Source: Alphaproteobacteria bacterium (GTDB taxonomy: Bacteria; Pseudomonadota; Alphaproteobacteria; CACZRW01). From it: 64,000 nt of DNA. A program made the position numbers and the translations under genes. The stretch is taken from assembly GCA_017507765.1 (NCBI GenBank), contig JAFWAG010000001.1, positions 7,013 through 71,012 on the forward strand, in the 5' to 3' direction. Positions 11,506-62,388 of this stretch are shown here, in pieces. The stretch's first letter is position 1. The number at the start of each line of letters is the position of its first letter. The notes below the pieces were generated by a model. It worked only from the letters and a program-made list of their open reading frames with translations. It was not told the DNA's origin and did no database searches.

Positions 11506-12591
<1,086 letters not shown>

Positions 12592-16181: not shown

Positions 16182-16268
16182 GGTTAGGTAATATCTTTTC
16201 TCTTGTATATTTTCGGAAAAAAGGCTTTTATATCCGTCTTACAGTTTTATTTCTAAGGAGAAAAAAAA

Positions 16269-16844
16269 ATGCCAGAATTAAAAGGTTCAGAAACAGAAAA
16301 AAATATTCTGAAAGCTTTTGCCGGCGAGTCGCAGGCTCGTAACCGTTATACTTATTTTGCCAGTGTGGCAAAAAAAGAAGGCTATGAACAAATCGCTGCG
16401 GTTTTCACAACTACCGCTGATCAGGAAAAAGAACACGCCAAACGCTTGTTCAAGCTTTTGGAAGGCGGCGAAGTAGAAATTACCGCTTCTTTCCCTGCCG
16501 GAAAAATCGGTACAACCTTGGAAAACCTTGGTGAAGCAGCAGCCGGTGAAAATTATGAACACACCGATATGTATCCTTCCTTTGCCGAAGTTGCAGAGAA
16601 AGAAGGCTTTACCGATATCGCCAATATCTTCCGCAATATCGCAGTTGCCGAAAAAGCTCACGAAGACAGATACCTTGCCTTAGCCGCTAATATCGAAGGC
16701 GGGCGTGTATTTAAACGTGACGGAAAAGTATGGTGGCAGTGCCGTAACTGCGGATTTACCGTTGAAGCTTCACAAGCTCCGGAAAAATGTCCTGCTTGTG
16801 CGCACCCGCAGGCTTATTTCGAACTGCAAGCCAAAAACTGGTAA
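16269..16844 (+). CDS. rbr: rubrerythrin
   Basis: 191 aa with a ferritin-like diiron domain ([31 protein letters not shown]) and a C-terminal rubredoxin-like CRNCG...CPACAHP. Confidence 0.9.
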
Positions 16845-42565: not shown

Positions 42566-42696
42566 TCCTAGGCTTTAAAAAAAAATTAAAAAAAAGGAAA
42601 TTTTTGCCTATCTTTAACTAATTTTTTATTCTAAGTTACATAAAATCTTGATGGGGTTTTGTCAAAACAGCACTTAACGTTAATAAGGGGTTAAAC

Positions 42697-51874: not shown

Positions 51875-52570
51875 ATGGCAGAAACGGCAAACTTAACCGC
51901 CATAGTATCCGGAAATGAAACCATAGGGAAAACTCGGATTGCAGTGGGACTGGCGGAAAGTTTTGCGGCTGCCGGAGAAAAAGTGCTTTTACTGGATACG
52001 GATATAGGATTTGGAAAACTTTCCGAATACTTAAAAGTAACCCCTGATGTCGACCTTTATGATGTATTGTACAACAGGGCGACATTAAATCAAGCAATCA
52101 TATTTTCTCCGGAAGGCGGGTTTGACGTTATCATCGGTTCCGGTAACAGTAAATGTAACATAGCCGCAATTCCGGAAAGCAATTTCTTTACCCTTAGGAA
52201 CGATATCCTATTACTGGCAGGAAATTATGACCGGGTAATAATCGATATGCCGACCGGAGAAAGCAAAAGCAATTTTTTATTACTGGACGCTTCGAAACAA
52301 ATTGTGCTGATTGCAAACGACCATGCGCCATCTATACGGGGAGCGTATGCCTTTATGGTCAGCATGGCAGAAAGAAAAATCTTGGCTAATATGGCGATTG
52401 CGGTAAATCTGGCTGCCACGGAAAAAGACGGAGAAACGGTATATCTTACCTTGCAAAAAGCCGCCAAAGCTTTTATTGGCAAAACACCGAAGTGGCTTGG
52501 AAACGTACGTAAAGACAACCTTGACGATATTTTATCTTTGGCAAAGGAGCTTGGCAAATGGACCTTGTAA
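51875..52570 (+). CDS. flhG: MinD/ParA-type flagellar number regulator FlhG (FleN) with a degenerate Walker A
   Basis: It sits directly after flhF. It carries the MinD-fold motifs LLLDTDIG and VIIDMPTG plus a C-terminal amphipathic helix. The P-loop reads SGNETIGKT instead of SGKGGVGKT. ATG 51875 is chosen over the track start 51812, which lies inside flhF. Confidence 0.75.
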   Translation: MAETANLTAIVSGNETIGKTRIAVGLAESFAAAGEKVLLLDTDIGFGKLSEYLKVTPDVDLYDVLYNRATLNQAIIFSPEGGFDVIIGSGNSKCNIAAIPESNFFTLRNDILLLAGNYDRVIIDMPTGESKSNFLLLDASKQIVLIANDHAPSIRGAYAFMVSMAERKILANMAIAVNLAATEKDGETVYLTLQKAAKAFIGKTPKWLGNVRKDNLDDILSLAKELGKWTL

Positions 52571-54540
52571 CACCTGTACCTTCGGCACCAGTTCCGCAAA
52601 GCTCCGGCGGAAGCGGGAATGCTTTGAATGCTTCGGTGCTTAACCCGTCAAAAGAGCTTGAAGCTTTAACACCGGAAAGCATCGTGAAAGGTGTCATTAC
52701 CGCTGTTGATAAAGTAAAAGGAAGTGTATCCGTTTACGGGCAGACGCCGGAAGAAAAACCTTTCAATATGGAAATTAAAATGCCTCTGATACCTGTAGAA
52801 GGAAGCGAGGTTAATATTAAAATCCTGCCCATAAGTCAAAGAACGCCGGAAAATCCTTTTCCTATAAAACTGGTTATAAATCCCAAAGCTTCTCCGCTTG
52901 CCACTCCTTTGCAGAATAGTGAATCAATGTTACAAAAAGGAATCTTGCCGGAAGCACAAAATGCCGGAAATAAGCCGATAGGGCAGCTTTCAACCCCTTC
53001 TTCCAATAGTGAATCAATATCACAACAAAGCGTTCCTGCGGATATAAAAAATGCGGCGGATAAAACTTTATCCTCGGCAAAAGCCGTTGATAACGCTTCT
53101 TTTTCCATAAAAAGTAATATTATAACAGCAGAGATATTATATACGGCGAAAAACATACCGGATATTAAGCTTATGCCTTCGCTTCAGCCGCAAAATATAA
53201 AGCCGGAAATGCAAACCGTTTTAAAAGCCGATGCATCATGGCAGGAGAATCCTCTGCCTATGGATATGGTGAAGCAAGGAACTTCTTTAAGTGTGAAAAT
53301 CGTTCAGGTGGAAGTTCCGGCAGGGAAACTTCCGGCGGGAAGTATTGCTTTGTCCGCAAGCCAACCGGCAAACGCAGGACAAGCAACGAGTCTTGGCCAA
53401 ACGCCAACAACGCAAGTAATGGGGGAAAACTTACCAAGCCGCCCGTATGAACAATTTTATCCTATGCCAAATCAGCCGGCACAAACGACGCAGACACAGC
53501 CCTTGTCCTCTTCCCCGCTTCCGAGTCAACCGATACAAACTCAAGCGCCTTTACCTACGGCTCAGCCTTCCTTGCCGAATGAAACGCAAGGACAGCCTGT
53601 GCAGACAATTCCGCCTCAGGGAAGCTCTGGGAATACTACCATATCCTCACCGAATACTAACTTTACGATAAGCGGAGAAGTCGTAAGCAAGCCTGCAGTA
53701 CCGCATACCGTTGTCGCGAATCAGGAAATGACCCTGTCTTTAAATATTAAAACCGAGTTTCCGACCGGAAGTTTAATAAAAATGGACGTTGTATCCTTAA
53801 CTCTGCCGGAAATAAATCCGAAGATGCCGGTATTAAATACGGTTAAAGCTGCTCCGCCGGACTTTACAGAGCTTAATACCGCCCTTAAAGAGCTTACCGT
53901 CAGCAATCCCAAAGCGGCGGCAGAGATGCTGGCAAAGATACCCCAACCGAATGAAAAGCTTGCCCAGAACCTCTTTAACTTTGTGCAGGCGGCTAAGTCC
54001 GGAGACGTTGGCCAATGGTTAGGAGCCGCAACCGTAAAAGCTTTGGAAGATACCGGCGATAACGGGCGAAAAATTACCGGAAAAATATCGGCAGATATGC
54101 TGGCAACATCACGAATAGCAACAGAAGCTTTGGGTGAATGGCGGACTTTAAATATTCCATTCTTGAACGGGCAAACCGTTCAGCCGGTTGCTTTGTTTGT
54201 AAAGCATCTTAACAATGAGGAGCAAGGACAGGAAACCACCCAAGGCAGCAAAAAATCTGCTTCGGTGCGCTTTTTATTTGAACTGGAGCTGTCAGAGCTT
54301 GGGCGGACGCAGATTGACGGCTTGACTTATCCAAAGGAAAAAGAGCTTGATTTGATTATCCGTAATGAAAAAGCTCTGCCGGAAGAAGCTCCCATCGCTA
54401 TGCGGGGAATATATGCCGAAGCTTTGGAGGCCGTGGGATATAAAGGCACCCTAACCTTACTTAAAACAAGTGATTTTATCGAAATAGCCGCGGCGGAAAA
54501 TGCCGAAGCATTCATTCCTAATTCAGATATTTGGGCATAA
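52558..54540 (+). CDS. Pro/Gln/Ser-rich protein with a FliK-like (Flg_hook-like) C-terminal domain
   Basis: 660 aa, overlapping flhG by 13 nt, with a low-complexity PQ-rich middle. The C-terminal RFLFELELSELGRTQIDGLTYPKEKELDLIIRNEKALPEE...YAEALEAVGY resembles the FliK C-terminal domain pattern. Confidence 0.5.
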   Translation: MDLVTPVPSAPVPQSSGGSGNALNASVLNPSKELEALTPESIVKGVITAVDKVKGSVSVYGQTPEEKPFNMEIKMPLIPVEGSEVNIKILPISQRTPENPFPIKLVINPKASPLATPLQNSESMLQKGILPEAQNAGNKPIGQLSTPSSNSESISQQSVPADIKNAADKTLSSAKAVDNASFSIKSNIITAEILYTAKNIPDIKLMPSLQPQNIKPEMQTVLKADASWQENPLPMDMVKQGTSLSVKIVQVEVPAGKLPAGSIALSASQPANAGQATSLGQTPTTQVMGENLPSRPYEQFYPMPNQPAQTTQTQPLSSSPLPSQPIQTQAPLPTAQPSLPNETQGQPVQTIPPQGSSGNTTISSPNTNFTISGEVVSKPAVPHTVVANQEMTLSLNIKTEFPTGSLIKMDVVSLTLPEINPKMPVLNTVKAAPPDFTELNTALKELTVSNPKAAAEMLAKIPQPNEKLAQNLFNFVQAAKSGDVGQWLGAATVKALEDTGDNGRKITGKISADMLATSRIATEALGEWRTLNIPFLNGQTVQPVALFVKHLNNEEQGQETTQGSKKSASVRFLFELELSELGRTQIDGLTYPKEKELDLIIRNEKALPEEAPIAMRGIYAEALEAVGYKGTLTLLKTSDFIEIAAAENAEAFIPNSDIWA

Positions 54541-54547
54541 AAAGGAA

Positions 54548-55399
54548 CTAAGCCGCAAGCTCGTTTAAAGCCGCTTGTTTCATATGCTCTATATCCGGTT
54601 CTTTATCCGTCCAGATGTTGAAAGATTTTGCCGCCTGCCGCACGAGCATATCAAGACCGTTCTGGGTCTTTAAGCCGATTTTCTTGGCATTACGCAAAAG
54701 CTCTGTTTCCGTCGGGTTGTAAATAACATCATAAACAACAGCATCAGGCGGAAGCTTTTTTAAATCCTTGTTGTTTAAAAGGCTGGCGCAATGCGGATAA
54801 TCCTTTAACCCAACCGGAGAAGCGTTAACCAAGATACAAACATCTGCCAATCTGTCCGTATCTTTATACGAACACAATTGCAGTTCGACATGATTAAACC
54901 GAGCCTCCATTAACATAAATAAGCCGGAAGCTTTTTGAGTATCCCGAGAATAAACGTCAATCTTGCTTATGCCCATTTTGATTAAAGCAAGGCAAATTGC
55001 CCTTGCGGCTCCGCCCGTTCCCAAAACCGCCGCCTTTTTCCCGCAAACATCGCAAGGAAGCGCAGAAGCAAAGCCATGCACGTCCGTGTTATAGCCTACC
55101 ATAACACCTTTTTTCAGGATTTTTACCGTGCTGACTGCGCCGGAATAGGTAACCAATTCTTTTACTTCCGGAAGCATATAGGTGATATTTACCCGATACG
55201 GAAGCGAAACATTAAAACCGCAATAGCCTTCTTGGCATAAAGTTTCCAAAGTGCGGTCAAAATCTGCCGGAGGAGTGGAAATAAGGTTATATTCACCTTG
55301 CAAGCCAACACTTTCCAAAGCCGCCTTGTGAATACAGGGCGACAGAGAATAAGACACAGGAAAACCTATCAAACCAAATCTGTAGTGCTTAGTTCGCAA
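54548..55399 (-). CDS. aroE: shikimate dehydrogenase
   Basis: 283 aa with a TTG start and GGAG SD. FGLIGFPVSYSLSPCIHKAAL, GFNVSLPYR, GYNTDVHG and GTGGAARA. Confidence 0.9.
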   Translation of the reverse strand: MRTKHYRFGLIGFPVSYSLSPCIHKAALESVGLQGEYNLISTPPADFDRTLETLCQEGYCGFNVSLPYRVNITYMLPEVKELVTYSGAVSTVKILKKGVMVGYNTDVHGFASALPCDVCGKKAAVLGTGGAARAICLALIKMGISKIDVYSRDTQKASGLFMLMEARFNHVELQLCSYKDTDRLADVCILVNASPVGLKDYPHCASLLNNKDLKKLPPDAVVYDVIYNPTETELLRNAKKIGLKTQNGLDMLVRQAAKSFNIWTDKEPDIEHMKQAALNELAA

Positions 55400-55510
55400 C
55401 CGGAAACTCCTATTAAATTATCCGGCTTAGAGTAGAACGTTTTTTCGCATTCTTACAACTGTTATTTGCTTTATGAATACTTTTTTGCGAAATGCCTGCG
55501 CATAGGTATA

Positions 55511-55540
55511 AAAAAACCCACCGCTATGGGTGGGATTTTT
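55511..55540 (-). terminator. hairpin terminator downstream of tRNA-Asn (bidirectional in form)
   Basis: CCCACC (55517-55522) pairs with GGTGGG (55529-55534). It is flanked by A6 on the left (a T-run on the minus strand) and T5 on the right. Confidence 0.75.
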
Positions 55541-55549
55541 AAATGTAAA

Positions 55550-55624
55550 TGGCTCCGACGGTAGGATTCGAACCTACGACCAGCCGGTTAACAGCCGGCT
55601 GCTCTACCACTGAGCTACGTCGGA
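55550..55624 (-). tRNA. tRNA-Asn (anticodon GTT)
   Basis: The reverse complement folds as TCCGACG-TA-GCTC-AGTGGTA-GAGC-A-GCCGG-CTGTTAA-CCGGC-TGGTC-GTAGG-TTCGAAT-CCTAC-CGTCGGA-G-CCA. It is 75 nt with an encoded CCA. Confidence 0.95.
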
Positions 55625-55646
55625 ACATTAGAAAATGTTCCTTCCG

Positions 55647-55721
55647 TGGAGGCCGAGGCCGGAATCGAACCGACATAAAAGGATTTGCAGTCCTCTGCAT
55701 GAGCCATTCTGCCACTCGGCC
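55647..55721 (-). tRNA. tRNA-Cys (anticodon GCA)
   Basis: The reverse complement is GGCCGAG-TG-GCA...TGC-A-GAGGA-CTGCAAA-TCCTT-TTAT-GTCGG-TTCGATT-CCGGC-CTCGGCC-T-CCA. It is 75 nt with an encoded CCA. Confidence 0.95.
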
Positions 55722-55879
55722 GACCTCAGAGCTCTGTTACCGATACAAAATCAGTAACGGAAGAAGCAACTTTATATACGCCCTTTTTGCTTAGGTCAAG
55801 AGAGAAAAATATTCTCTGGTGGATTTTTTTAAAAAAAGTTACATTGAAAACATATTATGTCAGGAAAAAGGATATAAAA

Positions 55880-56521
55880 ATGGATTTTTCCACCTCTGCT
55901 CGCCAAAATATGGTTGAAAATCAGCTTAAACCGCAAGGAATTATGAATGCGGCACTTTTGGAGGCTATGACAAACACTCCCAGAGAGGACTTCGTTCCCG
56001 AAGAATATGCGGATACGGCTTACAGTGATTTTGATATTCCTCTTACTGATACACGCTTTTTATTCCGCCCCGCAGAAGTCGCAAGATTTATTGCCGCCGC
56101 AGAGCTACAGCCTGATGACTTTGTCGCCGATATAGGCTGCAAGCTTGGCTATATAACTTTTATAACCGCTAAAATGGTAAAAGCCGTGGTCGGCATTGAA
56201 AGCGATAAAGCTTTGGCGGACAAAGCCGAAAACGCACTTTTGGAAGTCGACAATGCGGCAATCATTAACACCGATATGCATAAAGGAATGCCAAAGCAAG
56301 CACCTTTTGATGTGATATTTTTGGAAGAAATCCAAACCTCGGCTATGGCACCGAAACATTTTATTTCTCAGCTTGCGGATAACGGAAGACTGGTTTTCAT
56401 AACCGGAAAGGCGCCGATTTTAACCGTTCGGCTACTGATAAAAAAAAGGGAAGAAGTGTTTGAAAAAACGGCGTATCAATTCCTTTTAAACCCAGAAGCC
56501 CAAATTGCCCAAAGGGTTTAG
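55880..56521 (+). CDS. protein-L-isoaspartate O-methyltransferase-family protein (Pcm-like)
   Basis: MVENQLKPQGIMNAALLEAMTNTPREDFVPEEY and the SAM-binding DIGCKLGYITF. ATG 55880 (AGGAAAAAGGA upstream) is preferred over the track start 55787, which begins within 70 nt of the tRNA-Cys gene. Confidence 0.75.
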   Translation: MDFSTSARQNMVENQLKPQGIMNAALLEAMTNTPREDFVPEEYADTAYSDFDIPLTDTRFLFRPAEVARFIAAAELQPDDFVADIGCKLGYITFITAKMVKAVVGIESDKALADKAENALLEVDNAAIINTDMHKGMPKQAPFDVIFLEEIQTSAMAPKHFISQLADNGRLVFITGKAPILTVRLLIKKREEVFEKTAYQFLLNPEAQIAQRV

Positions 56522-56624
56522 GAAATACTTTACTGTTTGCCGTGATTAAAATATACTTTGAACGGTTATTTAAATGCAGGAGATTCGATAATGCATATGT
56601 TTCCTAAGAAAATGAAAGTCTCTA

Positions 56625-56632
56625 CCCCCCCC
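56625..56632 (+). repeat. homopolymeric C8 tract at the frame junction of the surface-protein gene
   Basis: Counted directly: tctaCCCCCCCCgtt. It separates the SD/ATG frame (56591) from the long ORF frame. Confidence 0.9.
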
Positions 56633-56681
56633 GTTAGAAAATAGCGTCCAATCCGGAAGTATCACCGTTGAAGTTATTATT

Positions 56682-58829
56682 ATGTTAGGGTTAATAGCTA
56701 CCCTGACACCGATACTTTATAAACACGTTGCCGACCGTCGGGAAGATATCGACAATATCAATGAAGCAAACACTCTGCTGTTAATTAAGAATGCTACCAA
56801 GGATTATATCGAGGCGAACAAAGATGTTTTATCCGTCGGTACTACCCTTCTTGAACCGGTTGATGTCGGAGTTGATATAGACGGTTACAAAATAGGTATA
56901 AAAAAGGATTCTGATGGCAACATAAATGCGATGATAGCCGCTTCTGACGGAAGCAATGATATGAAGGCTGCGAAGGTGGCGTCTTTGCTTGGGGTGTCGG
57001 CGGGGATTTATTCGGCGCAAGATGCTACCAGAGCTTGGGGTATTAACGGAGTCTGGGCAGAGAATGTAAGTAATTACGGTTTTACTTCTTTACCCGCAGG
57101 AATACCGGTGGTTACCACTACTTATGACGAAGAAGATAGCCTTGATATGGAGAAAATCTTTACGGCTATTGAAGAACACTCTTTTGAAAAGCTTACCGCC
57201 AAGGAGCTCTGCCTTGATAATGATGAACTGCCGGAAGAAGAACGCTGTATCACCAAATGGAAAGAGGAAACCTGTCCGGAATTAGTTGAGTTTTGCAATA
57301 ACGGGATAAAATGCCATGATGCATATTCCAAACGATGCAACCTGACCTGTAATGATATTTTGATAGGTTATCGGGCGGAAGGAATGACGCCTCAATCAAA
57401 TTATGATTTTCGTTTAACGGGAAGTAATTCAAACGGCGAAGCCAACAAAACCAAATGCTATTTCACTTCGACCACCGGATATAATGCGATAGAGATTATC
57501 GAAGCCTGTAACGGCGGTAATACGGAAGCTTGCAGTTTAGCAAATACCTATAGCCTTAACACCTCTTGTCAGAAGATTATAGATGCCTATAAAACGTTAA
57601 ACCAAACTCCGAGCAACGGTACATTTAAGCTTGGAGCAGCGGGAACGTCCACAGCCTGTTGGTTCAAAGACACCACAGGTTATTCAACCAAAGAAGTAAT
57701 TGAAAAATGTAATGCGGGAACAACGATTGCCTGCCAGATGGGAAGTGAGAATAAGTTAAACCGTACCTGTGCGGAATTGCAAACAGCGATGAAAAGTTAT
57801 GGAGCTATTCCGGCAAACGGCTCGTTCAAACTGACGCTGACCAGTACTACGGGTTCATCATATACTTGCGATATGAGCCAAACTCCGGCCTTAACGGAAT
57901 ACTTTTATAAAAACACGGCAGGGACATATACATTCAGTCTTTTAAGTAAAAAGATACAGTACAAGTTTGAAGTTTGCGGAGCTTCAAATTACGGTGGCAG
58001 AACACACGGAGGATATTCTTGGGGAAAGAAAATCCACAATTCCGCCCAAAGTTTTTTTGTGATTGTTGGTGGAATAGGAGGTGTCGGCACTTATGGTGCC
58101 TCTAGTTCCGGCGGAGGAACGGAGATACGTTTTGGAACATCTTCATGGGTTGATAAACACCGGATTTTAGTCGGCGGAGGAAGTAGCGGATATAATGCAA
58201 GTGCTACTCCTGGAGCTGGAGGAGGAGGCAACAATTGCGGCGGAGGCGGAGCAATGGGAGGTTGTAAAGGTGTTGGCGGCAGAGGATATGGAAATCCCAA
58301 CACTCCTGGAACTATCGGTCATGGAGGAGCTTCCGGCTTGTCTTGGTATGCAGGAACAGGAGGTAATGGAGGTGGCTACGGCGGCGGTGGTGGTGGAGGC
58401 GGCGACTGGGCTGGCTATGGCGGAGGCGGCGGAGGTGGCTTCGGCGGTGGAGGTCAAGGTGGCTCCTATGGTTGGGGTGCCGGTGCGAGCGGTACGGCAA
58501 CAAACGGTGGTGGTGGCACGACCGGATATAACGGAGGTTACGGTCAGGCAGATGGTGACGGAGGTTTTGGCGGTGGCGGCGGCTCAGACTGGGGAAGCGG
58601 AGGGGGCGGCTACGGCGGAGGTGGCGGCGGTGGCAGAGCCTCAGACGGAACCGCTGACCTCTCTGGCGGCGGGGGCGGCGGGCGAGTCTGTCTGGCGACT
58701 ATGCCGGCAGGGTGGCCGGCTTGTGACCCTGCGGTATGGGTGTTTGACGAAGGCTCCGGCGAAACCGGCAGTGATAAATGTCCCGGCACAGGTTGGGTAA
58801 AAATATCCGTGATAGAAATAAAGGAATAA
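56682..58829 (+). CDS. pilin-like-anchored cysteine-repeat / polyglycine-domain surface protein (longest intact ORF; the coding frame is open from 56616 and probably initiates at 56591 via the C-tract)
   Basis: 715-aa ORF. The upstream in-frame sequence encodes QSG/SITVEVIIMLGLIA (prepilin-like G-1/E+5). Three Cys-containing repeats follow, then a glycine-rich domain (GTYTFS...EVCGA...GGY...VIVGGIGG...GGGTEIRFG...RILVGGGSSG) and about 170 residues of polyglycine blocks. Confidence 0.7.
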   Translation: MLGLIATLTPILYKHVADRREDIDNINEANTLLLIKNATKDYIEANKDVLSVGTTLLEPVDVGVDIDGYKIGIKKDSDGNINAMIAASDGSNDMKAAKVASLLGVSAGIYSAQDATRAWGINGVWAENVSNYGFTSLPAGIPVVTTTYDEEDSLDMEKIFTAIEEHSFEKLTAKELCLDNDELPEEERCITKWKEETCPELVEFCNNGIKCHDAYSKRCNLTCNDILIGYRAEGMTPQSNYDFRLTGSNSNGEANKTKCYFTSTTGYNAIEIIEACNGGNTEACSLANTYSLNTSCQKIIDAYKTLNQTPSNGTFKLGAAGTSTACWFKDTTGYSTKEVIEKCNAGTTIACQMGSENKLNRTCAELQTAMKSYGAIPANGSFKLTLTSTTGSSYTCDMSQTPALTEYFYKNTAGTYTFSLLSKKIQYKFEVCGASNYGGRTHGGYSWGKKIHNSAQSFFVIVGGIGGVGTYGASSSGGGTEIRFGTSSWVDKHRILVGGGSSGYNASATPGAGGGGNNCGGGGAMGGCKGVGGRGYGNPNTPGTIGHGGASGLSWYAGTGGNGGGYGGGGGGGGDWAGYGGGGGGGFGGGGQGGSYGWGAGASGTATNGGGGTTGYNGGYGQADGDGGFGGGGGSDWGSGGGGYGGGGGGGRASDGTADLSGGGGGGRVCLATMPAGWPACDPAVWVFDEGSGETGSDKCPGTGWVKISVIEIKE
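57339..57875 (+). repeat. three tandem divergent coding repeats (about 72, 68 and 37 aa) with conserved cysteines
   Basis: TCNDILIGYRAEGMTPQSNYDFRL...CYFTSTTGYNAIEIIEACNGGNTEAC / SCQKIIDAYKTLNQTPSNGTFKL...CWFKDTTGYSTKEVIEKCNAGTTIAC / TCAELQTAMKSYGAIPANGSFKL...YTC. Confidence 0.8.
58170..58685 (+). repeat. low-complexity GGN-codon block (polyglycine runs punctuated by Y/W/F/D/S)
   Basis: Encodes GGGYGGGGGGGGDWAGYGGGGGGGFGGGGQGGSYGWG...GGFGGGGGSDWGSGGGGYGGGGGGG. It is visibly G+C-rich relative to its surroundings. Confidence 0.9.
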
Positions 58830-58847
58830 CGAAATACGACTTTATAA

Positions 58848-60413
58848 TTATAAGTAAGCTTGGCTTTCGTAATTATCCAGTAAATCGTTTTCTATCAAAA
58901 GCGTATCACCGGCGATAAGATTCTTATCCAACCAAGCGAAAGCTTCGGTGCGGGTGGGAAGCTCGATAAGTTCGGCATCTTTGGGAGCGTTATCCCGAAA
59001 GGCTTTAATAAAAGCCTGCATACGCTCTGGTACTATTATCAGAGCGATGTCCGCAACTTTGGCCGCTTTCTTGCCAAGTTCGGAATGCAATTCATCATGC
59101 AATGCACCCATTTCTATCATGCCGGGAGTCATAAGAATTGTCCTGTCCTGCCGAAGATTACCAAGAAGCTCTATCGCCGAACGGAAACCGTCAACATTGG
59201 AATTATACGCATCGTCAATTATGGTGATGTTGCCCGTTTGTCTTTTGACTTCCAAACGATGCTCTATCTGCGGCAAAGAACGAATACGTGCCGCAATCGT
59301 ATTCATCGGCACGCCAAGCTTAAGCGCCATAACTACCGCTAAGGCAATGTTTGCTATGTGATGCTTGCCAAACAACGGAACTTCCAAACGGCTTTTCTGA
59401 CCTTCGGCAACAAAGGTAAAGCTTAAACCTTCGGCGGTCTGTTCCGCACTTTCGCAATAATAATCTTCCCCTTCGCCGACAATGACGGCCGACGGAGCTT
59501 TACTTAAAAACTCAGGTGCTATCTGCGCCTTATTTAAAACCAGAATGCCGCCCTTTTCTTCCACGGCTTCGGCAAGCTCGAACTTTGCCTTGGCAACATT
59601 GCCAACCGTTTTAAAACGGGCATAATGCGCACTGCCTACGGCGGTGATAATCCCGTCATCAGGGTGGACCAAATCACAAAGCCGACGAATGGAACCGGGG
59701 TAATATGCGCCCATTTCAACAATGAAAAACTTATGCTCCGGACGTAAATCCCGATTGATAATCCGGCAAACACCCATAAGCGTATTGACACTGCCGGGGG
59801 TAAATAAAACCGGAGCGCCCGCAGATAAAATGTGCGCTAAAATATGCTTGGTCGATGTCTTGCCATAAGAACCCGTAATGCCGATAATCCGTGCCGAAGA
59901 TGCGGAAAGCTTTTTCTTTGCCGATTTTATAAAGCCTTTGCGGTAATACGCTTCCAAAGGAAATAATAAAATATTTGCCAGAATCAACACCAAAGGAAGG
60001 AAGAAAATAATTCCCGCAGACGTAAATATAAAGAAAGAAGGAACTATAACCCAACTTAAGTAAAATAATCCGGCAGTTAAAATAATACTTACGCTATAGA
60101 TTCTTTTGGCTCGATTAGTTACCGCCAATTTTTTCTTTGCGCTTTGCATTACTTTGATTTCCCGCCACGCAAACCCAACGAATAAAGCTAAGGAAAGCAA
60201 AGCCGCCCACGGAAAATAAACCGCACCTATGCCAATTATAACCAACGGGAGAACCAACTTTTTATCCAAAAGGCGGGCTTTGAGACAAACCGTTTTGGCA
60301 TAGGAAGATGCTTCGTATTCGTCCTGTTGAAACAGCCACAGTAAAAAACGCAGACGAAAGCCGCAGAAAACAAACGCTGACAACAAAACCGCAAGCATCA
60401 GTTCAAAAGGCAT
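58848..60413 (-). CDS. membrane-anchored Mur ligase-family protein (MurF-like catalytic region)
   Basis: 521 aa. The N-terminal ~165 aa contain about four hydrophobic helices. These are followed by ARIIGITGSYGKTSTKHIL (the Mur ligase P-loop), IVEMGA, and the C-terminal ILMTPGMIEMGALHDELH resembling MurF. Confidence 0.75.
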   Translation of the reverse strand: MPFELMLAVLLSAFVFCGFRLRFLLWLFQQDEYEASSYAKTVCLKARLLDKKLVLPLVIIGIGAVYFPWAALLSLALFVGFAWREIKVMQSAKKKLAVTNRAKRIYSVSIILTAGLFYLSWVIVPSFFIFTSAGIIFFLPLVLILANILLFPLEAYYRKGFIKSAKKKLSASSARIIGITGSYGKTSTKHILAHILSAGAPVLFTPGSVNTLMGVCRIINRDLRPEHKFFIVEMGAYYPGSIRRLCDLVHPDDGIITAVGSAHYARFKTVGNVAKAKFELAEAVEEKGGILVLNKAQIAPEFLSKAPSAVIVGEGEDYYCESAEQTAEGLSFTFVAEGQKSRLEVPLFGKHHIANIALAVVMALKLGVPMNTIAARIRSLPQIEHRLEVKRQTGNITIIDDAYNSNVDGFRSAIELLGNLRQDRTILMTPGMIEMGALHDELHSELGKKAAKVADIALIIVPERMQAFIKAFRDNAPKDAELIELPTRTEAFAWLDKNLIAGDTLLIENDLLDNYESQAYL

Positions 60414-61165
60414 TATTTTATCTCCGCTAAAAAGTTTTCAATTTGATTTTCGACCAAAGGTGCGCCGGAAGCAAGAACCGTATAATGGTCATGCATAGGA
60501 AGTTCGCTATATTTGGCATCGGGCATAAGCTCTTGGAAACGTTTGCCTAAATAAGACGGAGTTGCCGTATCTTCGGCTCCGTAAAGCAATAAAACCGGAC
60601 AAGAAACCTGCATCGCCTTTAAAGAAAGGTCTTTATTCACGGATTTAACCAATATCTGCCGCATTATCGGCGAAGCGTTACGGTAATCCGCACTGCCAAG
60701 TTTAAGACTACGGATAACCGGAAGCGATTTTATTTGCGGAAATCTGCGGATAAGGCGGGAAAGCCTCTTCATAAAGAAAGCTTTTATCTTAAAGCCAAGA
60801 CTGCGCTTTACTTTCAGTCCGGGGGAAGCAATCAAAACCATAGCCTTGATGCTGTGCGGGTATTTTGCCGCCGCTTCAATGGCAACCCTGCCCCCGAAAG
60901 AATGCGTGATTAAAACCGTATCTTTGGGCGGAAGCGAAGAAATAAAATCTTGAAGCAAGTCCGCATAATCTTCGGTATCCAAAGGCTTGTCCGGCTCGGG
61001 AGATTCTCCGAACCCCGGCAAATCAATTAAATAGTTTTCCGCCGAGTCTTGGAAATACTCCGCCAAAGGAAGCAAAGCCTTATGACTATGCCCCCAACCG
61101 TGTAGCCAAATTAGCCGGAGCGGAAGATTGTCAGAAGCAGACTTTAGCTTTAGCGTAAACATCAC
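60413..61165 (-). CDS. alpha/beta-fold hydrolase
   Basis: 250 aa. LIWLHGWGHS, DLPGFGES, the nucleophile elbow THSFGG, and a C-terminal His (HDHY). Its stop overlaps the start of the MurF-like gene. Confidence 0.75.
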   Translation of the reverse strand: MMFTLKLKSASDNLPLRLIWLHGWGHSHKALLPLAEYFQDSAENYLIDLPGFGESPEPDKPLDTEDYADLLQDFISSLPPKDTVLITHSFGGRVAIEAAAKYPHSIKAMVLIASPGLKVKRSLGFKIKAFFMKRLSRLIRRFPQIKSLPVIRSLKLGSADYRNASPIMRQILVKSVNKDLSLKAMQVSCPVLLLYGAEDTATPSYLGKRFQELMPDAKYSELPMHDHYTVLASGAPLVENQIENFLAEIK

Positions 61166-62388
61166 TTGTCTTCAAAAATCCGATTGTCTTTTAACGTACC
61201 GTAAGCAAGCGACTTTTTGCCTGCTTCGGCAAACGCTTCTTCGATAATGGCAGTTAAAAGCTTGGTAAAGTTTACTTTAGGTTCGGCATTTTCCCATAAA
61301 TAAAACGCAAACGAACCAGGGATGGGATTTACTTCCCCAAGCCATAATTCTCCGGTCTTGGTGTTGCAAAGGAAATCTATTCTGGGGGCGCCGTTGCCGT
61401 CCATAGCCACGAACAATGTCTTTGCCCAAGAAAGTATTTTTTCCCGCTGTTCCTTGGTAAGTTCTTTCGGATTATATTCTCGGCTTAAACTAACCAAACC
61501 GCGAATATCGGCATTGCCGGACTTTGCACCCTTTACGCCCTTTCCTTTGCCGCCGGCTTTATACTTGTCCGCAAAGTCTAAGATAGCATTTTTCTTTGCC
61601 GGACGCTCGATAGCAGAACAGGAAGGCTCGCCGAAAATGCGGGTAACCGAAACGTTATACTCCTCAAGATTTTCTACAAATGGCTCAACAATAGCCTGAT
61701 TGTCCAAAGCAAAAACTTTGATAACCGCAGAATCAAGTTCTTCTTTGGTCGTTACTTTGCTGACCGCAATGCTGCTGCCAAGATGCAACGGCTTTACACA
61801 AAGCGGGAACGGAAGGTTTACGTCCTTGGTAATATCCTTTACGTCAAAGAACGCTTTGTTTTCCGGACGGTTTAAAACGACTTCCGGTAAAACCGGTATG
61901 CCAAGAGTGCGGCAGAGTTGCTTGGTCGTAACCTTGTTCATAAAAACATTCGCCGCAAGCATACGGCAGCCGGTATAGGGAATGCCCGCACTTTCCATTA
62001 AACCTTGGAAAGCCCCCGTTTCACCAAAATCACCATGAAACGCAAGAAATGCCGCATCAAAATATATCGGCTTTTTTGCGGCAAAAATGCCACCGGAAAC
62101 CGGCTGTAAATAACCGACGCCGTCGCCAAGGCAGAACTTTACTTTGGTAATGTCTTTCGGCTGTTTTACCGCCAAAGGATAGTTATCCTGATTCAAAAGA
62201 CCGTTGCCGGTCCACCAATTGCGGTTCAAATCAATATAAACCGGAAAAACTTCAAACTTGCTCTGGTCAATAACCTTTATCGCCTGTAATCCGGTCAAAA
62301 TGCTGATATCATGTTCGAAAGATTGTTCGCCAAAAAATACCGCAATTTTCTTTCTTGCCATTACCATAAAACTCCCTAATGTATACAA
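61162..62388 (-). CDS. D-alanine--D-alanine ligase-family ATP-grasp enzyme (long form with a Lys/Gly-rich insertion)
   Basis: 408 aa. KKIAVFFGEQSFEHDISILTG, HGDFGETGAFQGLMESAGIPYTG, NKVTTKQL, RIDFL...GEVNPIPG. The likely start is at Met10 (62361). It overlaps the hydrolase gene by 4 nt. Confidence 0.8.
   Translation of the reverse strand: MYTLGSFMVMARKKIAVFFGEQSFEHDISILTGLQAIKVIDQSKFEVFPVYIDLNRNWWTGNGLLNQDNYPLAVKQPKDITKVKFCLGDGVGYLQPVSGGIFAAKKPIYFDAAFLAFHGDFGETGAFQGLMESAGIPYTGCRMLAANVFMNKVTTKQLCRTLGIPVLPEVVLNRPENKAFFDVKDITKDVNLPFPLCVKPLHLGSSIAVSKVTTKEELDSAVIKVFALDNQAIVEPFVENLEEYNVSVTRIFGEPSCSAIERPAKKNAILDFADKYKAGGKGKGVKGAKSGNADIRGLVSLSREYNPKELTKEQREKILSWAKTLFVAMDGNGAPRIDFLCNTKTGELWLGEVNPIPGSFAFYLWENAEPKVNFTKLLTAIIEEAFAEAGKKSLAYGTLKDNRIFEDK

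Follow-up and report, generated by a model that had tools for sequence, protein, structure and literature searches.

The 64,000-nucleotide (nt) stretch of alphaproteobacterial contig JAFWAG010000001.1 analyzed here (the window, whose coordinates are used throughout) encodes, entirely on its + strand, a pilin-like protein whose translation start and body are placed in different reading frames by an intervening run of eight C (C8). We propose, at a probability of about 0.74, that this run is a homopolymeric slipped-strand phase-variation (contingency) switch of a multigene family and that the window was caught in the OFF state, i.e., with start and body out of frame. An OFF phase was one of the explanations offered by the original prediction, made from the sequence alone, and it gained support: the tract is the only indel relative to a 99.57% identical strain, a C10 homologue is in frame, and the protein bodies appear to be under purifying selection. 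Features of contingency loci were found at this site. A G/C homopolymer of at least about 7 nt, here C8, sets the frame in the 5′ coding region; its length differs between close strains with collinear flanks (C8 in the window, C9 in locus L005); and both ON (L006 and P0013) and OFF (14 loci) lengths occur among homologues that have kept the open reading frame (ORF).

Anatomy of the leader, tract, and main frame

A Shine-Dalgarno (SD) sequence, AGGAG (56578..56582), is followed after an 8-nt spacer by ATG 56591, and the frame opened by this codon runs through the C8 tract (56625..56632) to a TAG stop (56642-56644). The resulting short leader ORF (56591..56644), which represents the OFF state, reads MHMFPKKMKVSTPPVRK up to the stop and contains a second in-frame ATG at 56612 (MKVSTPP), kept in all paralogues of group A as defined below. 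The main frame, shifted by +1, is open from 56616, following a TGA at 56613, and reads KSLPPPLENSVQSG/SITVEVIIMLGLIATLTPILY, the slash marking the predicted cleavage site. Its 5′ end (56616..56681) is start-less, as an ORF scan found no ATG, GTG, or TTG before ATG 56682; the last part of the leader and the cleavage motif (...LENSVQSG/SITVE) are encoded here, with Gly(-1) at 56655-56657, Ser(+1) at 56658, and Glu(+5) at 56670-56672. Removing one C in silico gave a 745-amino-acid (aa) product, and adding two C would likewise fuse the frames, making C7 and C10 the ON lengths and C8 and C9 the OFF lengths of the proposed switch. Re-reading and translating the sequence reproduced the anatomy given in the original prediction, from the SD spacing, the tract, and the TAG codon to the Gly(-1)/Glu(+5) motif in the +1 frame and the 745-codon gene expected at C7 or C10 (translated for C7).

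Gene callers annotate the body of the pilin-like protein as a 715-codon ORF (56682..58829), and public entry P0001 carries the same gene call. That gene callers picked ATG 56682 favors this codon as the true start. However, it falls inside the hydrophobic helix, as had been noted earlier, and no GGAG-like SD motif was found 5 to 12 nt upstream. Translation from there would begin mid-helix, leaving the invariant Gly(-1)/Glu(+5) motif truncated, and we rejected the internal start on these grounds. Eighteen public proteins of the close subfamily are called from an internal Met (MLGLIA.., MFGLIA.., or MVEV..), and in all nine whose DNA could be examined an out-of-frame tract lies upstream. Paralogues free of the tract, namely L002, L003, and the first gene of L054, combine an SD with a short in-frame leader, e.g., MNRTQKG/S....

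Position and conservation of the tract

A single C8 in 64 kb is unremarkable: dinucleotide shuffles contained 1.85 on average, and 78 of 100 shuffles had at least one. All other G/C runs in the window are shorter than the tract, and just four G/C runs there reach 6 nt or more. Because C8 alone is statistically unremarkable, the argument rests on its position and conservation and not on rarity. Across 11 aligned homologous leader regions, CTA followed by eight C formed invariant columns, and the promoters and start regions of several of these 11 paralogues are otherwise unrelated. In 276 kb of retrieved DNA, all but one of the G/C runs of at least 8 nt were located at the leader site.

Tract length across homologues

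We compared 15 DNA-verified tract-bearing loci from at least eight assemblies, which have in common a CTA-Cn leader site with tract lengths of C8, C9, and C10; a genome-contig scan with a single-protein query yielded at least four loci. In group A, Cn is followed by G, and C7 or C10 is ON. In group B, made up of the metagenome-assembled genome (MAG) E30__bin2 and relatives, Cn is followed by ATAC, and C8 or C11 is ON.

The same locus as in the window was found in ENA sample ERZ27317164 (L005, on a 318-kb contig), where it matches window positions 53683-61829 at 99.57%. Over these 8,148 bp, the two sequences differ by 34 substitutions and one indel, and the indel is in the tract, which is C9 in L005 and C8 in the window, both OFF. 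The other group A loci with OFF tracts have C8 (L047 and L050) or C9 (L046, the second gene of L054, and L048 and L049, which are one gene in two samples). All group B loci are OFF with C9, both the orthologue found in four independent samples (L001, L051, L052, and L053) and another paralogue (L004). L006, a group A locus that encodes P0011, has C10 and is ON; its leader, MLLKKMKVSTPPPLENSVQSG/SITVE, is the predicted fused form, KKMKVSTPPPLENSVQSG/SITVE. The protein record P0013 is also in frame, with STPPP and the leader MQKFSKKLKVSTPPPQQ...SSGG/IMVE. L013, from a 45% identical subfamily, has an OFF C7 (129-135) at a similar leader position and was left out of the alignment of 11 leaders. 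The tract was in frame in 1 of the 15 DNA-verified loci and OFF in 14. The original prediction had called for a comparison of tract and frames in related genomes, and this comparison revealed C8, C9, and C10, mostly out of frame, and no fixed intact frame.

These data bear on whether the tract was miscounted by sequencing or assembly in a gene that is really in frame, as had also been considered. Homopolymers are error-prone on some sequencing platforms. However, the window, one MAG, and six ENA samples all yielded out-of-frame lengths, under contig names (k141, k127, and scaffold styles) that point to different assembly tools, and the same C9 was obtained in four independent assemblies. Nor do other homopolymers of the window break genes: about 94% of the window is coding, and the A7/A8 runs within ten other ORFs leave these intact. 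A miscount was rejected on the recurrence of out-of-frame lengths in independent assemblies and the intactness of the A7/A8-containing genes, and an explanation by either a miscount or the internal start is very improbable.

Variation in tract length also bears on programmed ribosomal frameshifting at the CCC-C Pro codons, by +1 at the C8 of the window. A tendency to shift by +1 is intrinsic to CCC-N, and ribosomes stall at PPP motifs; a +1 shift would rescue the window, L047, L050, the L001 group, and L004. In identical context, however, the C9 of L005, L046, L048, L049, and L054 needs -1 or +2. As C8 needs +1, C9 needs -1, and C10 needs no shift in the same context, no single programmed frameshift serves the family, and the +1 recoding suggested in the original prediction does not hold as a single programmed event. 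Tract length is not conserved, unlike at known programmed sites, and neither a single slippery sequence or direction nor a stimulatory element at the proper spacing was found: the run is followed in the 0 frame by GTT or CAT, neither a stop nor a rare codon, and prediction gave a single hairpin, about 50 nt downstream (z-score of -2.1). Ribosomal frameshifting is thus a highly improbable explanation.

Several observations weigh against a phase-variable switch. The proportion of ON loci, 1 of 15 by DNA or about 2 of 20 by protein calls, is below the one third expected for random lengths, which requires either that OFF be favored or that C9 be a mutational optimum. One orthologue has C9 in four samples despite a synonymous divergence (dS) of up to 0.075, and P0010 has C9 in two samples. 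Consensus tracts vary less than a very fast switch would predict and are not highly variable everywhere. In addition, the 64-kb window, which contains flagellar and housekeeping genes, includes no pilus machinery or prepilin peptidase, and Pfam and NCBIfam searches with the fused protein gave no match at E values up to 0.1, prepilin models included.

The constancy of C9 in the four strains and in the two P0010 samples, together with the dominance of out-of-frame lengths, favors transcriptional slippage. RNA polymerase would slip on the C run, and a fixed C8 or C9 would give a minority of in-frame mRNA and steady low expression, the "OFF" lengths being the functional, conserved state. As such slippage adds or removes bases, both C8 and C9 could be rescued. 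In contrast, both the in-frame C10 allele and the differing lengths in near-identical strains match the predictions of DNA-level switching. Moreover, productive bacterial transcriptional slippage is known chiefly from A or T runs, and the rC:dG hybrid is stable and slips poorly, which counts against slippage at a C run. We consider this explanation unlikely.

ORF maintenance behind OFF tracts

A start and a body that are out of frame could also mark a decaying pseudogene, killed by the frameshift and eroding in its various copies. A remnant of this kind exists at L047 (3568-3723), immediately 3′ of a full family gene: a decayed 51-codon 5′ cassette with its own C8, MSPKKMKLSTPPAKNSVNSE/SITVITFGLNATL..., from which Gly(-1) and Glu(+5) have been lost. 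However, behind every OFF tract the ORF is open for 609 to 745 codons, in a genome of 44% GC. The ratio of nonsynonymous to synonymous divergence (dN/dS, Nei-Gojobori estimates over the non-glycine-rich part) is 0.18 to 0.27 between OFF paralogues and 0.03 to 0.43 between orthologues, which indicates purifying selection on the ORFs that follow the tract. In all cases the frame is broken at the tract and at no other place, and every base of the SD, ATG, and leader is conserved. Gene decay is therefore very unlikely to account for the OFF tracts.

A shared 5′ cassette in a dispersed family

DNA alignment delimited a conserved 5′ cassette (56546..56632) consisting of the -10 region, SD, start, leader codons, and tract. 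From TTAAAATATACTTT through CTA-Cn, the same sequence is found in the window, L005, L048, and L049, and also in L046 as far as its contig reaches; the cassette of L054 is near-identical, with a few substitutions upstream of the SD. The leader string AAAATGAAAGTCTCTA is conserved across loci. Outside the window, the cassette is found at about 1376-1451 in L048 and L049, at about 5280-5365 in L054, and at 1-53 in L046. A consensus scan proposed a sigma-70-like promoter candidate, TTTACT-17-TATACT (56529..56557; 9 of 12 matches). This candidate is weak alone, as shuffled sequence yields equally many sites; its -10 element falls within the cassette, and the -10 region is kept in the paralogues L048, L049, and L054.

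The bodies of the paralogues that share the cassette have diverged to dS values above 1.5. Cassette identity versus diverged bodies suggests gene conversion, modular reuse of 5′ ends, or strong constraint. The paralogues are dispersed beside housekeeping genes and are at times in tandem, as in L054 (2270-5220 and 5324-5627) and L008 (2513 and 5375). In L054, a tract-free copy (P0003) comes right after an OmpR-type response regulator and is followed by the tract-bearing C9 copy.

Protein family and domains

Database searches with the fused protein found 72 relatives, all from MAGs or metagenomes of uncultured Alphaproteobacteria, at least 17 of them from one NCBI MAG (locus tags beginning with IKD08_). 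Short leaders such as MNRTQKG/SITVEAIVMLGLIA are found in about 30 of the relatives, and two, P0011 and P0013, have an in-frame leader with a proline run. As in class III signals, in which a short, positively charged leader precedes about 20 hydrophobic residues, the leader ends in Gly and is followed by Glu at +5 and a hydrophobic stretch (...KKMKVSTPPLENSVQSG/SITVEVIIMLGLIATLTPILY). In alignment A1, which covers 22 diverse members, neither Gly(-1) nor Glu(+5) varies, and a long helix and a beta head are predicted, in agreement with the prepilin-type motif recognized in the original prediction.

Against Pfam, family members gave sub-threshold matches only, to ComGE, Shufflon_N, and PilM; the direct match to Shufflon_N (PF04917) was below threshold in 2 of 22 members, with a best E value of 0.023. 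PDB sequence searches with the single protein and with a profile returned nothing useful, and a profile search for remote annotated relatives returned further family fragments only. An exhaustive phmmer search gave 241 cluster representatives. Among them is a wider superfamily of proteins of 900 to 1300 aa with leaders of the type ...QKG/S(M/L)MVEALAMLGLI..TPILYKK. One phmmer match, P0120 (E = 6.6e-9), scores 57.6 bits against Pfam Shufflon_N, and hhalign aligned the N-domain profile A1 of the family with P0120 over 158 columns (probability of 97.6%, E = 3.6e-12). By this transitive link through P0120, the N-terminal domain is probably a PilV-like minor-pilin domain.

The mature protein was modeled by AlphaFold2 with a 41-sequence alignment. 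The N-terminal pilin-like domain (56658..57140) is predicted to comprise an alpha-1 helix (residues 2-54) and a beta-sheet head (residues 61-156), and its predicted local distance difference test (pLDDT) score was 87.9 when it was modeled alone. In a Foldseek search of the PDB, its best match was PilM (3eoi; probability of 0.99, E = 4.8e-3), of an R64-type type IVb pil system; the TcpA filament (8uhf) matched weakly (E = 0.72), and no pilin match was significant. Cys-rich helical repeats follow (57234..57797, mature residues 193-380; pLDDT of 93 to 98) with invariant cysteines (alignment A2), for which Pfam and Foldseek searches gave no Pfam or PDB counterpart.

The remainder of the protein (57819..58826, mature residues ~388-723) is predicted to consist of a C-terminal beta domain, modeled at residues 388-505, and a glycine-rich region similar to the TG/GRD of ALK/LTK. 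The GGx stretch at residues 514-672 was modeled at low confidence (pLDDT below 50). Foldseek matched the C-terminal part to 7lrz, 7nx1, 7lir, and others (E values of 6e-4 to 9e-3, probabilities of 0.8 to 1.0) at low TM-scores. As modeled, this part resembles the glycine-rich domain of the animal ALK/LTK receptor kinases. The ALK-like domain had no Pfam match, and a literature search for ALK-like glycine-rich domains in bacterial pilins found no papers.

A metagenome scan recovered only a distant subfamily of about 880 aa (45% identical, from Joint Genome Institute metagenomes), most members of which have an intact leader. In L018 (~2440-2450) and L035 (two samples), an out-of-frame A8 comes straight after a GTG start, and in L023 (~2430-2440) an out-of-frame A7 comes straight after ATG. 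OFF states linked to homopolymers may be a feature of the whole family.

Genomic neighborhood

The neighbors of the pilin-like gene are a flagellar cluster (~28.9-52.5 kb), tRNA-Asn, tRNA-Cys, pcm, a Mur ligase gene, and ddl. The flagellar cluster (28950-52570) encodes FliX, FlgI, FlgK, a flagellin-like protein, FlaF, FliK, FlgD, FlgE, FliF, FliG, FliH, MotA, a sigma-54 activator, FlhA, FlhF, and FlhG; an A9 run with an A8 run close by lies between flgE and fliF (42577-42595). At the 3′ end of the cluster, overlapping the end of the flhG-like gene, is an ORF for a 660-aa protein rich in Pro, Gln, and Ser (52558-54540, + strand), which has no Pfam match and may be an unrecognized flagellar protein. 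The Mur-ligase-family protein (58848-60413, - strand) has the middle and C-terminal domains only; no Pfam Mur-ligase N-terminal domain was found, and its N-terminal extension of about 170 residues looks hydrophobic and membrane-like by eye. Elsewhere in the window, a CcrM-like methyltransferase (11509-12591) fits the alphaproteobacterial assignment of the homologues. A rubrerythrin (16269-16844) suggests an anaerobic lifestyle, and an intergenic A9 run (16261-16269) lies upstream of its gene.

Discussion

In the mechanism that we propose, transcription and translation would start at the conserved promoter/SD/ATG cassette, with the tract in the leader-peptide-coding part of the gene. At C7 or C10, the leader M..KKMKVSTPP(P)LENSVQSG would be joined to the body, which would thereby gain a class-III-type signal of Gly(-1), Glu(+5), and the hydrophobic helix. 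At C8 or C9, translation would end after 17 or 18 codons, and the 723-residue mature part would not be produced. Slipped-strand mispairing at replication would alter the tract by single C's and so flip the gene. With some family members switched and others tract-free and short-leadered, the population would vary the adhesin-like variants that it displays. From the sequences we infer that switching would be frequent and reversible within the population, that a prepilin peptidase would process the protein and a pilus would display it, and that it is an adhesin candidate.

A broader possibility, which we hold to be tentative and on balance improbable, is that the tract-bearing paralogues form a coordinated system of antigenic or adhesive variation or else that a conserved C9 is read via transcriptional slippage. 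In the former case, dispersed or tandem genes of one genome would carry a near-identical promoter-SD-leader-tract cassette, homogenized by gene conversion, and would be held at OFF lengths adjoining ON, C9 being ON minus 1 in one lineage and ON plus 1 in another. At any time, no more than one PilV-like tip adhesin, with its ALK-like glycine-rich domain, would then usually be displayed. Slippage at a conserved C9 would make expression graded rather than binary. Either would amount to a new regulatory design for the type IV pilin-like proteins of uncultured Alphaproteobacteria.

The slipped-strand switch that we favor is a mechanism of known kind; what is new is the lineage, the PilV-like/ALK-GRD-like protein family, and the family-wide conserved leader-tract cassette. 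An uncultured alphaproteobacterial lineage, represented by metagenomes and MAGs only, would be using a contingency-locus strategy better known from mucosal pathogens. A practical consequence is that gene callers systematically mis-annotate the family from an internal Met, as in 18 truncated public entries. The tract could also serve as a simple marker of strain-level surface variation in metagenomic reads.

Among mucosal pathogens, Neisseria offers two likenesses. Jonsson et al. reportedly described in 1991 a poly-G tract in the region of pilC1 and pilC2 that codes for the signal peptide, and Stern et al. are said to have described in 1986 CTCTT repeats in the leader peptide of the opa family. 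In both, as would be the case here, a repeat in leader-coding sequence sets the frame of a pilus-associated protein or surface adhesin. The opa genes likewise form a multigene family whose copies switch independently, most of them being OFF at any time. Opa proteins are beta-barrels, however, and PilC, of the PilY1 type, has a Sec signal, whereas here it is the switched protein itself that has the pilin-like N-terminus; the protein families and the phylum also differ.

The protein architecture recalls PilV of the IncI1 R64 type IVb thin pilus (PF04917), in which a pilin-like N-terminal constant domain is combined with alternative C-terminal adhesin parts. In R64, this variation is generated within one gene by Rci site-specific DNA inversion. 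In the family studied here, it would come instead from many whole paralogues, each with a homopolymer frame switch.

In Campylobacter and Helicobacter, G/C tracts of 8 to 10 nt within genes toggle surface-structure genes by frameshift (PMC8355987, PMC2823697). As in our homologues, tract lengths differ among strains (PMC8355987, PMC2823697). The Campylobacterota switch dozens of unrelated genes, whereas here one family has a homologous tract at one leader position.

The sortase-pilus genes bbr_0113 and bbr_1889 of Bifidobacterium breve UCC2003 are switched by replication slippage at a G tract (PMC9187656). There as here, promoter, SD, start, and secretion signal belong to a short upstream ORF, and a G/C homopolymer lies between this ORF and a very large one for the pilus protein, whose annotated internal start has neither SD nor signal; tracts recur in related strains (PMC9187656). 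B. breve is moreover a commensal and not a pathogen (PMC9187656). It differs in being Gram positive, with a sortase/LPXTG pilin and a Sec signal in place of the prepilin-type (class III-like) leader of this alphaproteobacterium, and the family studied here has many dispersed paralogues with one common 5′ cassette. Switching was measured experimentally in B. breve and is inferred here. The B. breve reference genome is OFF, ON alleles being a minority that is enriched in vivo (PMC9187656), which provides a published parallel for the OFF bias of the present family.

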